From a virus: a stretch of DNA of 23,502 nt. Every line of letters starts with the position of its first letter. The first letter of the stretch is position 1. The translations under genes were made by a program, and so were the position numbers. Location: the UHGV virus genome UHGV-0080740; one strand, given 5' to 3'. The notes beneath the pieces are model-generated. The model was not told where the DNA came from, searched no databases, and saw only the letters and a program-made list of their open reading frames with translations. This document shows positions 8,883 through 23,335 of the stretch, piece by piece.

Positions 8883-8886
8883 ATGG

Positions 8887-8913
8887 CAAAAAAAAGGCGG
8901 CCTAATGGCCGCC
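8887..8913 (-). terminator. rho-independent terminator/attenuator just upstream of ref ATG
   Basis: On - strand GGCGGCC-ATTA-GGCCGCC followed by T8, ending 5 nt before ref start, downstream of ref operator/promoter. Confidence 0.55.
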
Positions 8914-8980
8914 AATGATGTCAAGGAGTGAAGTAATGGCAACGTCTTCGTAGTTGACAAAAACTGCGGCTCAATTATAG

Positions 8981-8997
8981 CGATCTATTAGAGCAAT
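8981..8997 (-). promoter_or_regulatory. C1 operator (Op2-like) overlapping ref promoter
   Basis: - strand ATTGCTCTAATAGATCG matches C1 operator consensus ATTGCTCTAATAAATTT; TATAAT follows on - strand. Confidence 0.75.
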
Positions 8998-9102
8998 GAT
9001 AGATATTTTGTTTATCGCTAATCACATTTTTTCACTTCAGTACCTGTGTGCTATACTCCTTCTTGATTGATTGGATGCGGAATACAAACCCGCTCTTTTG
9101 TG

Positions 9103-9129
9103 CAGCCTGGCTCCTTGCCAGGCTTTTTT
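9103..9129 (+). terminator. hairpin with T8 run (+ strand terminator; on - strand a 5' structure preceding the CCAATCAATCA motif)
   Basis: gcctggc-tcctt-gccaggc followed by tttttttt. Confidence 0.45.
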
Positions 9130-9441
9130 TTATTTCATCATGGAAGTTGTTAACGCTTTGGACCTTGCTGAACTGATTGAGAGGGCTTTGTCAACGTGCC
9201 CCAAAAATTCGCCAAACGCAGACATCACTTTAGCAAAACCGCGCCGTGCTTCTTCCTCGGTGGCATTCATCACGAAATGTTCAGCACCACGCATACTTTT
9301 GACAGGGAACGCAACGGATATTGAATCAATATCAGGCATTCTATCGCTCAGCTTTACAGTGACAATGACGGCTGGCGACTGAATATTAGTGCTTACAGAC
9401 AGCACTACATATTTTCCGTCGATGTTGAAATCCTTTCTCAT
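9130..9441 (-). CDS. hypothetical protein, 103 aa (cra position, downstream of cre)
   Basis: SD GGTGA 3 nt before ATG; C1-operator-like site upstream; preferred over the overlapping + strand ORF 9071-9382, which lacks such signals. Confidence 0.45.
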   Translation of the reverse strand: MRKDFNIDGKYVVLSVSTNIQSPAVIVTVKLSDRMPDIDSISVAFPVKSMRGAEHFVMNATEEEARRGFAKVMSAFGEFLGHVDKALSISSARSKALTTSMMK

Positions 9442-10530: not shown

Positions 10531-10752
10531 TCAGACAATAGTTTTAAGTAAAGTGTACAGGATTGGCTCTGCCTTTACCTGTTTATGGTTCTCGTCATAG
10601 AAACGCCAGCGACCGCGCGTGCGTTCTATTTTCTCTTCACCGCGCGATAATGACAGTTGGCAACTATCACGATCAAACCCTTTTGCCCGCCAGTAACCAC
10701 GGTTTTTCTCAAGCTCAAGATGAGTGGACACTTTAGCAGCTGAATATCCCAT
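10531..10752 (-). CDS. candidate small basic protein, 73 aa, between loxP and cre
   Basis: SD GAGGTG 4 nt before ATG; stop 8 nt before cre ATG; CCAATCAATCA motif directly upstream of SD. Confidence 0.35.
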   Translation of the reverse strand: MGYSAAKVSTHLELEKNRGYWRAKGFDRDSCQLSLSRGEEKIERTRGRWRFYDENHKQVKAEPILYTLLKTIV

Positions 10753-10782
10753 TTTTCACCTCTGATTGATTGGTGGTGCTAA

Positions 10783-10846
10783 GTGCGCTACGCGAAATCT
10801 GGAGCACTAACACTGCCAACATTTCGCAGATTTTACGTAGCGCAAC
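10783..10846. promoter_or_regulatory. imperfect 20-bp inverted repeat in the cre upstream region
   Basis: gtgcgctacgcgaaatctgg ... cagattttacgtagcgcaac (17/20 complementary) around a 24-nt spacer. Confidence 0.4.
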
Positions 10847-10849
10847 CTT

Positions 10850-10922
10850 GATCAAATGATCAAGTGATCACTATTTGACCTGATAAGGTATTGAACTGTA
10901 TTGATTTACAGGTAAATTGATC
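10850..10922. promoter_or_regulatory. cluster of four Dam sites (TGATCA hexamers) in the cre regulatory region
   Basis: GATC at 10850, 10858, 10866 and 10919; Dam-regulated cre promoters are described for P1. Confidence 0.5.
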
Positions 10923-11676: not shown

Positions 11677-12528
11677 ATGATAAATTATGTCTACGGCGAA
11701 CAACTGTACCAGGAGTTCGTCAGCTTCAGGGATCTCTTTCTAAAAAAAGCTGTTGCACGCGCCCAACACGTTGATGCCGCCAGCGACGGTCGTCCTGTTC
11801 GCCCGGTTGTCGTTCTGCCGTTCAAAGAAACGGACAGCATTCAGGCTGAAATTGATAAATGGACTTTAATGGCGCGGGAACTGGAACAGTACCCAGACCT
11901 CAATATCCCAAAGACTATTTTATATCCAGTGCCTAACATCCTTCGCGGTGTACGTAAGGTTACAACTTATCAGACAGAAGCTGTGAACAGCGTCAACATG
12001 ACCGCTGGCCGCATTATTCATCTGATTGATAAGGATATTCGCATCCAAAAAAGCGCGGGGTTCAATGAGCACAGTGCGAAATACATAGAGAACCTGGAAG
12101 CAACAAAAGAGCTAATGAAGCAGTACCCGGAGGATGAAAAATTCCGTATGCGCGTACACGGCTTTAGCGAAACAATGCTGCGCGTCCACTACATTTCCAG
12201 TAGCCCTAACTACAATGATGGTAAATCAGTTAGTTACCATGTGCCACTGTGTGGCGTGTTTATCTGCGATGAAACCCTCCGTGATGGAATCATCATCAAC
12301 GGTGAATTCGAGAAAGCAAAATTTAGCCTTTATGACTCCATAGAACCGATCATCTGCGACCGCTGGCCGCAGGCAAAAATATATCGCCTGGCAGATATTG
12401 AAAATGTAAAAAAACAAATTGCCATCACTCGCGAAGAGAAAAAGGTCAAATCAGCCGCATCAGTTACGCGCAGTCGTAAAACTAAGAAGGGGCAGCCAGT
12501 AAACGACAACCCCGAAAGCGCGCAATAA
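11677..12528 (+). CDS. c1: C1 repressor of lysis, 283 aa
   Basis: MINYVYGEQLYQEFVSFRDLFLKKAVARAQ... recognised as P1 C1; SD GGAGG. Confidence 0.95.
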   Translation: MINYVYGEQLYQEFVSFRDLFLKKAVARAQHVDAASDGRPVRPVVVLPFKETDSIQAEIDKWTLMARELEQYPDLNIPKTILYPVPNILRGVRKVTTYQTEAVNSVNMTAGRIIHLIDKDIRIQKSAGFNEHSAKYIENLEATKELMKQYPEDEKFRMRVHGFSETMLRVHYISSSPNYNDGKSVSYHVPLCGVFICDETLRDGIIINGEFEKAKFSLYDSIEPIICDRWPQAKIYRLADIENVKKQIAITREEKKVKSAASVTRSRKTKKGQPVNDNPESAQ

Positions 12529-12531
12529 ATT

Positions 12532-12553
12532 ATGCCCGGCATCAACCGGGCAT
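12532..12553. terminator. hairpin terminator between convergent c1 and antirepressor-like gene
   Basis: atgcccgg-catcaa-ccgggcat, A/T-rich flanks on both sides. Confidence 0.5.
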
Positions 12554-12560
12554 TCTTCCA

Positions 12561-13706
12561 TTATTCAGCCGCCACCGGTTTTAACAAGCCAGCATCGAGC
12601 AGTTTACGCGTCAACCACTGTTGTCCTTTCCCCGTTAATTGGGGCGTCAGCCGTATCTGGTAGCCATCTTCATCATCCAGCACCACTTCTTTCACTGTGA
12701 AATATCCGGCGTTTATGTACTGCTGGAACGGCACATTTTTACGCCCGCCGGACGCTATCAGAATGCCGTTCTCCCGTAACCAGGCAAACAGCGCGTTTTG
12801 CTTCAGCCCAACAACCTTTGCAAAATTACCAATCAGGATCCCCTTAGCCACTGATACACGGTCGGCAAAATCGACCTTGGGGGCTGCGGCCACCAGTTGT
12901 TGATTTAGCTGGTGGGCCTTCTGTTCCAGTAGCTGCTTTTGTTCAGCCAGCTCGGCAGCCAGGCGCAAGGCTTCAGGTAGTGTTTGGGGGATTGCGACCG
13001 GTTGCTGTTCTTTTTGCCGGAAGTAGCTGTCTTCCAGTTTTTCAAAGAATGCCCATGCTTCATCTGTGTTTACGATCTTAGACATGCGTGCCGCTCCGCG
13101 TTCGGCCCAAAGAATTACCTGGCTTGTATATTTGCTAACCAGGTGACTAGTAGTCACCAGCCTTTTAAATTCCTTTAATTTTGAACCAGTTAAGAGATAG
13201 TAATGCTTACCTTCTTCAAAGCGATCGGAGTTGCGAGACAAATTTTTACGAATATTAGCTTCATCGGTTCCATACCCCTTAGCAAGAGTTTCGGTCGTTA
13301 CTACACGCACTCCCAGCCATTCCAGAACGGGAATTTCATCAGACTGATTCTGAACAACCACCAGCTCTGATTCCTGAACTGAAGTTGCATGAATTTTTTC
13401 TGATTTAACGTTAGTTGCTTTCATTCTGTGTGCCTCCTTGCGTGCTTCGGCTGCGACGGTTGCGTAATTCAGATGACCCTGTTCGAGCAGGTATTCACGG
13501 ATATCGGTCACAGCGATAGCCTTTAAGCGCAGATAAACATCGCGCTTATCGACATCCAGATGCGGGTATTCCTTTTCAAGAATTGCTGCGAGTTCTTTCG
13601 CTGATAGAAGAGATTTAGTGCGGATCATGTAATCCGCAATCTCGTACGATGTTATTCGTGAGTGATTTATTTCCATGAAGTGGCGTCCCTGCCAGTTAAG
13701 TAACAT
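12561..13706 (-). CDS. antirepressor-like protein with KilA-N/ORF6N-type and KilAC (ANT) domains, 371-381 aa
   Basis: Central segment VRVVTTETLAKGYGTDEANIRKNLSRNSDRFEEGKHYYLLTG fits ORF6N/KilA-N; C-terminus GILIGNFAKVVGLKQNALFAWLRENGIL...NVPFQQYINAGYFTV fits KilAC; alternative start at 13676. Confidence 0.7.
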   Translation of the reverse strand: MLLNWQGRHFMEINHSRITSYEIADYMIRTKSLLSAKELAAILEKEYPHLDVDKRDVYLRLKAIAVTDIREYLLEQGHLNYATVAAEARKEAHRMKATNVKSEKIHATSVQESELVVVQNQSDEIPVLEWLGVRVVTTETLAKGYGTDEANIRKNLSRNSDRFEEGKHYYLLTGSKLKEFKRLVTTSHLVSKYTSQVILWAERGAARMSKIVNTDEAWAFFEKLEDSYFRQKEQQPVAIPQTLPEALRLAAELAEQKQLLEQKAHQLNQQLVAAAPKVDFADRVSVAKGILIGNFAKVVGLKQNALFAWLRENGILIASGGRKNVPFQQYINAGYFTVKEVVLDDEDGYQIRLTPQLTGKGQQWLTRKLLDAGLLKPVAAE

Positions 13707-14841: not shown

Positions 14842-14868
14842 ATCACACCTTTAATCACTGATTGGGCT

Positions 14869-16290: not shown

Positions 16291-16875
16291 ATGCCTAATC
16301 GCATTCCTCTCGATCCTGTATTGCCCAAAAATTTTGACTGCACTCCTAACGAGAAACGCTCTAAAGCTCAGCTGGACGCCTAGTGGGACCATCCATATGG
16401 GGTTACACAACCTGACGGGAAAATTGTAGTTTATTGTCTGAATGGTGGGGCGTGGGACCGTCCATCCGTGCTTTGTTTGGCAGATAACTATGATGAAGCC
16501 TGTGAACTTGCCGAAAGACAGCAGGCAAGCTGGGTAAAAACACGGTCTGAACCGACATTCATGTTTTCAAAAGAACCGCCATTTATACTGGCGAGGATGC
16601 CGCAGCGACCGGATCATCAACAAGAAATTGTTGCTGAATTTTCCTCAAGGGATGAGATGAATCTCTTCTCATTAAAGCAGGAAGAAAGGGATCGCGTCGA
16701 AGTGTCTCCAACTCTCGACCACAACCGGATGAACCTGGCCCAGCTCGCCTGGTACAGCAAAGAATTAGAGATGTCTATTGCCCGGCTTGAAAACGAAAAA
16801 GCCGCTATCCAAGTCCAGCACGAAGTAGTTCTGAACCGGATTAGAGAAATGCAAAACGATAACAGGGGATTTTGA
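16291..16875 (+). pseudogene. LexA-proximal ORF (lxr position) interrupted by in-frame amber at codon 31
   Basis: ATG 16291 with SD AAGGA 7 nt upstream, in frame with the 135-aa track ORF (16468-16875); single TAG at 16381-16383. Confidence 0.5.
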
Positions 16876-21008: not shown

Positions 21009-21095
21009 TTACCCATGTGCGACGATGCCGCCAAAAGTGATAGAGAACAGCCAGAAATAGATCGCGGCCATAATGATTTTGAATGCCGTGTTCAT
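21009..21095 (-). CDS. candidate hydrophobic micro-protein, 28 aa
   Basis: MNTAFKIIMAAIYFWLFSITFGGIVAHG; SD AGGAG 8 nt upstream; CCAATCAATCA just upstream of SD. Confidence 0.35.
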   Translation of the reverse strand: MNTAFKIIMAAIYFWLFSITFGGIVAHG

Positions 21096-21123
21096 ATTTT
21101 CAGCTCCTGTGATTGATTGGATA

Positions 21124-21149
21124 CATGCCGCGCCTTGCGGCATGTTTTT
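21124..21149 (+). terminator. hairpin plus T-run (+ strand terminator; on - strand a 5'-UTR stem-loop downstream of C1 operator)
   Basis: catgccgc-gcctt-gcggcatg followed by tttttatttt. Confidence 0.45.
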
Positions 21150-21177: not shown

Positions 21178-21194
21178 TTATTTATTAGAGCAAT
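21178..21194 (-). promoter_or_regulatory. C1 operator
   Basis: - strand ATTGCTCTAATAAATAA, 15/17 to consensus; at the 3' end of the HAD-like gene, upstream of the micro-ORF/ASCH operon. Confidence 0.7.
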
Positions 21195-21772: not shown

Positions 21773-23035
21773 TCAGCGAACGTAAATAGTGCCGCCGTTC
21801 ACTTTTTCCCATGCATCGCTAAGTGCATAGCAAACATCAAGAAGTCTTCTTGCCGCTGTTTCCTCTAAACCCAATTCGACAACCAACTGCTCATGACGGC
21901 GGGTAACCACATCAAACAGGGTATGCAGCCCTTTAGCTGCCAGATCATCAATAAATTCCGGTTCGAACGGCAGCTCTGCATCTGCCAACATAACCTCTTG
22001 CGCCCACTCAACTCGACGGACCAGTTCCGGGCGGCGGCTTTCCATCTCTTTACAGATCAATTCATGGAAGAACTCTACCCAACCTTCCGGCTGGAACTCG
22101 CGGAAAATTGCCAACGGCTGGAAGTTTGGCATCAACCATTCGTTGATTCGGATATCAATGGCATAGCCCATGTCGCAGCAGAACTGATAAGCAAAGTCCA
22201 GCTTAGAAACGATATAAGGACGCTCGTTATTGAACTCTTTAGGCGATGAGATCCCATAAGCCAGGAGGCGCGGGAAGAATGAGATTTGCCCTAACGTCGG
22301 ATGGAGTTTGCTTGCAGGAAAACGGCGCTCAGTAATGCCATACATTTCCTTCTTGAGCGTCGCAAATTTAGCATTTTCATTAACCAGCGCGGTAACCTCT
22401 GCTTTTTTATTAGCAAATGCCACGCGCGCTTCGCTTGCATCTTTAATAGTTTTTTTGAGCTGTTGGTTAAGATCGGCGACCTGCTTACGCAGTTCCTGTC
22501 GCTCGCTTTTAGCTTTGTTATAGCGTTTCTCAAGGTTAAAAGGATCAAGTTTCATGATCTCTTTATATTGAGATTTTAGCGTTGAAATCTGTGAGTTCCG
22601 CAGTTCAACCATCGCGGTCATTTCATTGAGTTTTGTTTCCAGCTCAATGCTTATACGTTCGGCATTATCAGCACGCTGGTTGGCGTCATGCGTCGCATCG
22701 TCGATCGCGTCCTGTTGCTGGCGTTTCAAATGTTCAATTTGCAGCTGAAGCTCTTCAATTTCTTTACCCTTCAGACCGAGATCCAACTGCATATTTTCAG
22801 CTGCATCTACCAGGGAGTTATGGCTATCAGCTTCTGCGTTATAAACATCAATAAGCTGTGCGTGAAGCATCTCCGCTGACTGAACCGCATTATCAAAAAA
22901 ACGCGCTGTGAGGTCATCACAACTAACGCGGCGTTGCGCGGCCCGGATGTTCTGGATAATGGCCGGGATACCGGCATTCAGGACGTCAGGGATAGATACA
23001 TTTTCGATTGATTGGTTTTGTGCTGAAGTGCTCAT
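21773..23035 (-). CDS. hypothetical protein, 420 aa, N-terminal coiled coil plus globular C-terminal domain
   Basis: Long ORF with heptad-like charged region aa 90-230; start 1 nt after stop of upstream 72-aa ORF. Confidence 0.65.
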   Translation of the reverse strand: MSTSAQNQSIENVSIPDVLNAGIPAIIQNIRAAQRRVSCDDLTARFFDNAVQSAEMLHAQLIDVYNAEADSHNSLVDAAENMQLDLGLKGKEIEELQLQIEHLKRQQQDAIDDATHDANQRADNAERISIELETKLNEMTAMVELRNSQISTLKSQYKEIMKLDPFNLEKRYNKAKSERQELRKQVADLNQQLKKTIKDASEARVAFANKKAEVTALVNENAKFATLKKEMYGITERRFPASKLHPTLGQISFFPRLLAYGISSPKEFNNERPYIVSKLDFAYQFCCDMGYAIDIRINEWLMPNFQPLAIFREFQPEGWVEFFHELICKEMESRRPELVRRVEWAQEVMLADAELPFEPEFIDDLAAKGLHTLFDVVTRRHEQLVVELGLEETAARRLLDVCYALSDAWEKVNGGTIYVR

Positions 23036-23318: not shown

Positions 23319-23335
23319 GGAATTATTAGAGCAAT
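23319..23335 (-). promoter_or_regulatory. C1 operator, inverted relative to the neighbouring site
   Basis: + strand ggaattattagagcaat. Confidence 0.65.

Follow-up and report, generated by a model that had tools for sequence, protein, structure and literature searches.

What accounts for a ten-nucleotide word that recurs in the UHGV virus genome UHGV-0080740, of which a stretch of 23,502 nucleotides (the window) is considered here? Judged by its sequence, the window is part of a P1-like phage-plasmid, its plus strand being the complement of the P1 map (Table 1). An earlier note on this DNA had drawn attention to a 10-11-mer at four positions, and had described its minus strand copies as one element placed between a hairpin and the Shine-Dalgarno sequence (SD) of several genes. 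We lean towards a different reading, in which the word is the seed of an undescribed trans-acting small RNA (sRNA) together with its complementary target sites in several phage genes. The unannotated RNA gene of about 67 nucleotides that this reading calls for, on the plus strand between c8 and ref, is in our judgement quite probably real.

Recurrence and conservation of the word

The word GATTGATTGG stands on the plus strand at 9065-9074, 10764-10773, 21111-21120 and 23006-23015. Against these four exact copies, 0.09 are expected from dinucleotide shuffles, 0 of 100 of which reached four, and 0.083 under a first-order Markov model (Poisson P about 2e-6); the recurrence is far beyond chance, as the earlier note had held. 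All four sites share the 10-mer, while the 11-mer TGATTGATTGG is exact only at the first three, the fourth reading CGATTGATTGG. The sequences that flank the copies in the window are unrelated to each other, and the copies are therefore not parts of duplicated blocks, an origin that had been raised at the outset as an objection.

Two distant relatives were compared in full, namely the Cronobacter phage JK004 and the Salmonella arizonae plasmid CP053320 (hereafter the Salmonella plasmid). JK004 has six exact copies of the word, against 0.25 expected; in the Salmonella plasmid four are exact and a fifth (TCAATCAATC) is near-exact, against 0.32 expected. Within each of the three genomes every copy lies on the same single strand. 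In the relatives the word is found at orthologous places: in the cre operon leader, between c8 and ref, downstream of a C1 operator in the leader of a small hydrophobic open reading frame (ORF), and at codons 7-10 of pmgS. Three-way alignments show it as an island of identity amid diverged leaders. At the pmgS copy, codons 8-10 (CAA TCA ATC) are identical in the three lineages amid a variable N-terminus, with three synonymous sites frozen, in a gene whose product is 69-75% identical in amino acid sequence over the relatives (69% between JK004 and the window). Elsewhere in the gene, the baseline of identical codons for conserved residues is 0.29. Given the islands of identity in the leaders and these frozen codons, the word is, on this sequence comparison, under selection at the nucleotide level.

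The collections searched contain three independent lineages, of the P1/window type, the JK004 type and the Salmonella-plasmid type. A BLAST search with the Salmonella-type RNA region returned five near-identical plasmids and nothing further. Pattern scans gave two Escherichia matches in a genome collection, 47 matches in metagenomes, all within the three known types and most commonly of the P1 type, and the same three types plus chance matches among viral contigs. The more distant phage-plasmid CP111090, whose Cre is 41% identical, has neither the word nor a match to the covariance model of the candidate RNA. Variation within the types was followed in a sample of 80 Cra-anchored loci from IMG/VR.

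P1 itself has a fifth exact copy, inside dbn (AF234172, about 73519-73528) and in the opposite orientation, so that a dbn mRNA would carry the seed sequence itself and not a target. Judged by gene order only, with no homology search for dbn made, this gene seems to be absent from JK004.

A candidate small RNA gene between c8 and ref

Read on the plus strand, the copy between c8 and ref has the surroundings of a short transcription unit. A promoter scan places a predicted promoter with 9/12 matches upstream of it, in which the TG is present and forms an extended -10 (TGcTATACT), and the 7 nucleotides between the -10 box and GATTGATTGG put the seed at the predicted transcript start. The seed is followed on the same strand by a small hairpin, CUCUUUUGUGC, and AGCCTGGCtccttGCCAGGCT with a run of T8. 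For the resulting RNA of 67-69 nucleotides the predicted fold (-23.2 kcal/mol, z = -3.0) has two hairpins between a free 5' end and a U tail, and every minimum-energy fold leaves nucleotides 1-8 of the seed free. Across 14 aligned variants from the three lineages the seed is invariant at all 10 positions, with the stem-loop that follows being variable, and it is exact in 76 of the 80 IMG/VR loci.

This anatomy is shared by the relatives. JK004 and the Salmonella plasmid keep TGaTATACT, the 7-nucleotide spacing, the seed, GTGCAGCC and the terminator, and the intergenic DNA around these elements has diverged. Terminator scans call terminators on the same strand in all three genomes; read on the c8 strand, the same stem is without a U tail. 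In the alignment of 14 sequences, 95.6% of the cells of the proposed structure pair, compared with at most 56% in slid controls, and four pairs change on both sides. Three of these pairs are in stem-loop 1, and in the terminator, where 100% of the cells pair, there is one compensatory pair (U-A to C-G). A covariance model built for the RNA (R1) finds exactly one strong copy per genome, at 93.7 bits in the window, 70.1 in JK004 and 55.4 in the Salmonella plasmid, and no paralogue. The P1 and P7 records have nothing annotated at 1830-1956, and in Rfam there is neither a match to the window at the gathering threshold nor a family for the candidate RNA.

The predicted RNA promoter is divergent from the ref promoters and does not overlap the C1 operator Oref, and in JK004 and the Salmonella plasmid no operator adjoins it. 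On the other side of the candidate gene, between it and c8, these two relatives have a very hydrophobic ORF of 52 amino acids (JK004 44948-45106 and CP053320 13212-13367, both on the minus strand) whose stop codon abuts the RNA terminator; this ORF is lacking in P1 and in the window.

Target sites in the phage genes

The remaining copies in the window are, on the minus strand, exact complements of the seed. The site in the leader of the cra-cre-c8 operon (target A) is exact in all 80 IMG/VR loci, and both relatives have it unchanged in the corresponding position despite a different first cistron, which by lineage is cra, a 356-amino-acid gene or a 68-amino-acid ORF. Its predicted duplex with the RNA has -17.8 kcal/mol. 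The long hairpin in this leader has a conserved stem base (GCTACG...CGTAGC) and an interior that differs among the lineages.

The site on the pmgT transcript (target C) is kept in JK004, and reads UCAAUCAAUC in the Salmonella plasmid, where a G-U pair would still form. With the P1-type RNA, pairing in the window runs 5 bp past the core to a total of 15 bp (-22.4 kcal/mol). The hairpin that precedes this site shows compensatory changes in its stem, GGCCGC/GCGGCC in JK004 and GGCCAC/GTGGCC in the Salmonella plasmid. For target A and target C, the earlier description of a hairpin, the word and an SD in a row stands, with the hairpin at 10785-10843 followed by the motif, GAGGTG and ATG at cra, and that at 21123-21145 followed by the motif, AGGAG and ATG at an ORF of 28 amino acids. 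This ORF, which is absent from the annotation of the P1 record and has no Pfam match, has an N-terminal hydrophobic segment that is conserved in JK004 and the Salmonella plasmid, and may encode a small membrane or toxic peptide. Pfam searches with the target proteins gave nothing informative.

The stem at 21123-21145 and its T-run also score as an intrinsic terminator on the plus strand, directly 3' of the plus strand seed word; neither JK004 nor the Salmonella plasmid has the T-run. A second RNA gene at this copy was considered and rejected, as the plus strand terminator has no plus strand promoter upstream and the covariance model gives only 15.5 bits.

The third target lies within pmgS, in the C1-repressed pmgR-pmgS operon, whose operator is at 23324-23335. 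Both relatives have an additional copy of the word in the leader of a gene for a membrane peptide of 50-52 amino acids, with a hairpin at the predicted 5' end of a C1-controlled transcript. JK004 alone has a copy between the attenuator hairpin of ref and the ref ATG, its ref gene being under its own operator (Oref), promoter and attenuator. An attenuator-like terminator, made up of a GC hairpin and a T7-8 run that ends 5-12 nucleotides before the ref start codon, is found in the ref leader of all three lineages (window about 8883-8925, minus strand; JK004 42402-42440; CP053320 about 10855-10900).

Shorter CCAATCA-like versions of the word had also been reported before other SDs. These strings are real, as CCAATCAGT at 14865 (minus strand) and 16266 (plus strand) lies directly 5' of the SDs of the 348-amino-acid gene and of the ORF starting at 16291, respectively, and CTAATCA precedes the antirepressor-like gene. 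Their number, however, is within the reach of chance: about 1.4 copies of CCAATCA are expected per strand and five are present, those on the minus strand including the four full motifs. The 7-nucleotide partial matches at 14865 and 16266 could be weak targets, with the right position and a frequency at chance level.

Pairing and a possible mechanism

The window has three exact 10-nucleotide complements of the seed and each relative has four to five, all of which lie 0-16 nucleotides from an SD or start codon or at codons 7-10. The predicted duplexes comprise 10-15 bp and have energies of -15 to -29 kcal/mol. In the predicted leaders the target word is about 75% unpaired, and it comes just after a stable hairpin and abuts the SD or start codon. 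When RNAs and targets of the three lineages are combined, the cognate duplex is the most stable one in 9 of 12 cases. The base before the word is G at every JK004 site and A at every site of the Salmonella plasmid, and the base after the RNA seed is C and U, respectively, which fits pairing. It is no independent proof, because the RNA gene itself is one of the copies.

What the sequences themselves show is the anatomy of the gene, its conservation, the covariation of its structure and the complementarity to the targets. We infer that the RNA is expressed, perhaps with use of Hfq, and the following mechanism is proposed on this basis. The candidate RNA would be transcribed constitutively in the lysogen, its extended -10 setting the transcript start at, or 1 nucleotide before, GAUUGAUUGG. 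It would pair beside the SD or start codon of the first cistron of cra-cre-c8, of the small ORF of the pmgT transcript and of pmgS, and in the relatives also at the gene for the membrane peptide of 50-52 amino acids and, in JK004, at ref. Such pairing could block binding of the 30S subunit, trigger decay of the mRNA, or both. As the predicted sign of regulation, repression is taken to be about twice as likely as activation, since the SD is directly next to the duplex; activation is kept in view by a weak CC...GG pairing of the motif with the SD in the predicted fold. Going by the operators at 21183-21194 and 23324-23335, and by Oref of JK004, most of the target genes are in C1-repressed operons. 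The RNA might thus serve as a post-transcriptional back-up or threshold that filters leaky C1-controlled expression and sets the level of Cre, and it would be titrated out once the target promoters fire.

Several points weigh against this model. The lineage-uniform base 5' of the word would equally result from any shared factor that reads the word. At the cra and pmgS sites of P1 and the window, the A that follows the seed has no pairing partner, and in JK004 and the Salmonella plasmid pairing does not account for the A found at motif position 11 of most targets. The first five codons of pmgS end just short of the target site. The covariation statistics are thin because there are only three independent lineages, and in JK004 and the Salmonella plasmid no good -35 is recognisable, which leaves the extended -10 alone as the promoter. 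Transcription of the RNA, its start and any regulatory effect are all predicted. Moreover, in three IMG/VR loci the RNA gene reads TCAATCAATC, with A in place of G10 of the seed, and has also lost the TG of its extended -10 (TGC to TAC), and their site A is unaltered. One further locus has ACAATCAATC at the RNA gene, which may be decaying in a few elements.

Alternative explanations

The earlier note had taken the minus strand copies as one kind of element, and a cis-acting sequence in mRNA leaders, for instance a protein site or a translation enhancer between hairpin and SD, would make the plus strand promoter and terminator between c8 and ref incidental. The layout of hairpin, motif and SD at cra, at the 28-amino-acid ORF, at the gene for the 50-52-amino-acid peptide in the relatives and before ref in JK004 speaks for it, as does the motif being free of G and unpaired, and a base 5' of the motif that is uniform within each lineage would be equally expected of a lineage-specific binding factor. 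We nevertheless consider it unlikely that all copies are of this kind. The copy between c8 and ref does follow a hairpin and precede AAGGAG in the window and in P1, as had been described for the window, without a start codon, but the SD-like string is not conserved and reads GCGAATGAG in both JK004 and the Salmonella plasmid. The codon following this copy on the minus strand is ATG in the two relatives, ACG in L109 and AGG in P1, with no conserved ORF. Because the copy has no conserved SD or ORF and does have a conserved plus strand promoter box and terminator, one sRNA gene with its targets is preferred over a single minus strand element. A cis-acting element would leave TGnTATACT, the 7-nucleotide spacing, the hairpin and the terminator with its compensatory pair unexplained on the other strand of just one copy, and the pmgS copy is within a coding region, 19 nucleotides after the start. 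A partner of the cis element in the ribosome is not apparent either, as complementarity to rRNA is not notable, with at most 7 contiguous pairs (G-U allowed) in 16S and 6 in 23S rRNA, 5S rRNA having been checked as well. Pairing with rRNA or with the tRNAs of the rrn operons, including enhancers of the epsilon or downstream-box type, was rejected on this ground.

A host RNA could also be what the sites pair with, instead of or alongside the phage RNA. Nucleotides 10-18 of E. coli K-12 OmrA (AUUGAUUGG) are the exact reverse complement of motif positions 1-9 and are identical to nucleotides 2-10 of the candidate RNA; OmrB differs by one base. OmrA, which is Hfq-dependent, is controlled by OmpR and sigma-S, and such pairing would tie phage genes to envelope and stationary-phase signals. 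OmrA and OmrB pair near ribosome-binding sites through a conserved 5' region and are themselves conserved in Enterobacteriaceae, the 9-nucleotide complement lies within this 5' region, and a purine stands 5' of the motif at 11 of 12 trans sites, where it could pair with U19 of OmrA. On the other hand, the match was picked post hoc among many known sRNAs, for which the chance of some such seed match is roughly 0.01-0.1, and the C at motif position 10, invariant at every site, would face U9 of OmrA. With OmrA as the partner, the anatomy of promoter and terminator would be left unexplained, as would the fact that the c8-ref copy is conserved. The OmrA-B model of Rfam has no match at E up to 10 around 8950-9250, the shared part being the 9-mer. 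As an account of the copies OmrA is improbable, and cross-talk between OmrA and the phage sites is possible. Combining both RNAs gives a more speculative picture, which we would hold only with considerable doubt, of a fourth layer of P1-like immunity: a constitutive RNA whose seed copies that of OmrA would silence cre and leaky C1-controlled transcripts, and OmpR and sigma-S signals would converge through OmrA on the same sites and feed the decision between maintenance and lysis.

That the word acts as DNA, either as a linker or crossover point for modular exchange or as a protein-binding site, or that it was spread by duplication or gene conversion, is very improbable. The first cistron after site A differs per lineage while the leader stays, and JK004 has its additional copy before ref, both of which would suit exchange of modules. 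However, the copies have unrelated flanks, and the breakpoints of homology between the window and P1 lie away from them, the nearest (20908) being about 200 bp from 21111. The ref gene of JK004 retains its own operator, promoter and attenuator, and the copy before it is therefore not a module junction. The word is non-palindromic and matches no annotated P1 site, and one copy is inside an ORF with frozen synonymous sites. Identity with a known P1 promoter element, which the earlier note had allowed for, is ruled out in the same way: C1 operators (ATTGCTCTAATAAATNT) and the -22 boxes of late promoters (AAGTGACTT) differ from it, and none of the several hundred features in the P1 and P7 records covers any copy. 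At P1 186-195, 1885-1894, about 82472 and about 84367, no annotated C1 operator, Lpa late promoter, lox, IHF site or Dam cluster overlaps the word, and an identity as an IHF site, late promoter or operator was rejected on both sequence and annotation.

Two other RNA partners were examined and set aside. The sequence of P1 C4 RNA and its a and b target sites are unrelated to the motif, and a genome-wide scan of P1, JK004 and the Salmonella plasmid that allowed G-U pairs for another phage-encoded complementary RNA found no site common to all three beyond the motif sites.

Relation to known regulatory RNAs

By prediction, the candidate has the features of a trans-acting sRNA, namely its own promoter and terminator, an accessible conserved seed, a covarying structure with modest support and several targets in initiation regions. 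It resembles OmrA/OmrB, RybB and MicA in its size range (65-90 nucleotides), its single-stranded conserved 5' seed, a U-rich stretch before a Rho-independent terminator and several targets at or next to an SD. In contrast to these RNAs, it is encoded by a phage-plasmid and is predicted to target genes of the phage itself. It is most likely an undescribed trans-acting sRNA with a small regulon.

Small RNAs are already known as immunity factors of phages, the P1 family included. The C4 RNA of P1 and P7 (immI) and the CI RNA of P4 pair with short repeats beside a ribosome-binding site, such as a2/b2 before icd-ant in P1, and C4 is cut by RNase P from the transcript that it controls. The likeness to the candidate ends there, since C4 has its targets on its own transcript and its pairing sequences in internal loops, whereas the candidate would be read from a promoter of its own, with its seed at the primary 5' end and its targets spread over at least three separate operons at distances of 2-14 kb. 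The sequences differ as well (GAUUGAUUGG in the candidate, UUGACAG and GUUAGUG as targets of C4), and the covariance model of the C4/P4 CI family matches nothing in the window at the gathering threshold, nor anything around 8950-9250 at E up to 10.

Pairing of a small RNA with the leader of an mRNA for a tiny hydrophobic peptide, here the 28-amino-acid ORF and the peptide of 50-52 amino acids in the relatives, recalls IstR-1/TisB and OhsC/ShoB. In those systems the RNA is adjacent to a single toxin gene and pairs over 18-30 nucleotides. Unlike IstR-1 and OhsC, the candidate lies about 12 kb from the peptide gene, pairs through a 10-nucleotide core and has other targets (the cra/cre operon, pmgS and JK004 ref) that are not toxins, and a trans-encoded type I toxin-antitoxin system was rejected on account of the distance, the short core and the several unrelated targets. 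The start-associated sequences (SAS) of Cluster K mycobacteriophages, short words upstream of the start codons of a subset of genes, offer a further parallel, as they too are conserved just upstream of starts within one phage family. Unlike the SAS, which include the SD and have no known complementary RNA gene, the word described here is separate from the SD, has 3-6 copies and is the complement of the 5' end of a predicted RNA.

No match to the sequence of the RNA gene was found in the searchable literature, although the 2004 P1 genome paper was outside that search and a prior mention there is possible. The motif strings occur in 118 papers, of which the best-ranked 20 contain them in unrelated primer or eukaryotic sequences. 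C4 was the only P1 regulatory RNA mentioned in the P1 transcriptome and hfq studies searched; the P1 record also lists an RNA antisense to kilA. Few phages have been annotated as thoroughly as P1, whose Cre/lox system is used universally as a tool. If the model is correct, it would add an RNA layer to the control of P1 genes, and the picture of P1 immunity would have to be revised to include a second, trans-acting RNA over the cre operon, pmgS and small membrane-peptide genes. It would also account for a conserved, unannotated intergenic region beside c8, a gene linked to the establishment of lysogeny, and provide a compact natural case of a phage that regulates several of its own operons through one sRNA.

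Coordinates and the surrounding element

Table 1. Features of the window and their counterparts; for the copies of the word, P1 intervals correspond to the window read from its higher to its lower coordinate
Feature	Position	Strand	P1 position	Remarks
Predicted promoter	9029-9057	+		-35 TTTTCA 9029-9034, 17-nt spacer, TG 9049-9050, -10 TATACT 9052-9057
Candidate transcript	9065-9131	+		5' single-stranded seed, stem-loop 1, U-rich linker, terminator and U tail
Seed GAUUGAUUGG	9065-9074	+	1885-1894	predicted 5' end; T9064 possibly transcribed too; between c8 and ref promoters
Stem-loop 1	9073-9096	+		sequence differs per lineage, hairpin kept at same place
Intrinsic terminator	9104-9132	+		AGCCTGGCtccttGCCAGGCT and T8; abuts c8 stop codon 9130-9132 (-)
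C1 operator Oref core	8986-8997	-		about 70-80 bp upstream of predicted RNA start
Target A CCAAUCAAUC	10764-10773	-	186-195	11 nt before cra; directly 5' of cra SD GAGGUG; cra ATG at 10752
Long leader hairpin	10785-10843	-		5' of target A; arms GCGCTACGTAAAATCTG and CAGATTTCGCGTAGCGC
Target C CCAAUCAAUC	21111-21120	-	about 84367	between OpmgT/P1pmgT and pmgT; between 5' hairpin and SD AGGAG of 28-aa hydrophobic ORF preceding pmgT in P1
Hairpin ACATGCCGCaaggcGCGGCATGT	21123-21145	-		predicted 5' end of OpmgT-controlled transcript; promoter positions from P1 record
28-aa hydrophobic ORF MNTAFKIIMAAIYFWLFSITFGGIVAHG	21009-21095	-		own SD; first cistron after target C
C1 operator OpmgT core	21183-21194	-		upstream of target C, which would lie in a C1-repressed transcript
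pmgS site	23006-23015	-	about 82472	within pmgS, codons 7-10 (aaC CAA TCA ATC), 19-28 nt after pmgS start; start overlaps pmgR stop
P1-like segment	1256-10958		9876-1	darB to lox, reversed
P1-like segment	10959-12527			immC end of P1
P1-like segment	13509-16858		about 90.2-86.8 kb	
P1-like segment	20908-23449		about 84.6-82.0 kb	
omrA	2976102-2976189			E. coli K-12, NC_000913.3

The comparison with P1 also shows a loss in the element itself. Between c1 and the lpa/pdc region (window 12528-13508, against P1 about 90189-93231), the window lacks the packaging genes pacA and pacB of P1. Roughly 1 kb stands in their place, where the part at 12571-12992 shares 80% identity with the 3' portion of P1 ant1. 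With 99.9% identity, NZ_CP119405.1 is the nearest plasmid, and its size is only 76.9 kb. Given this size and the loss of pacA and pacB, the sequence suggests that the element may be defective in packaging.

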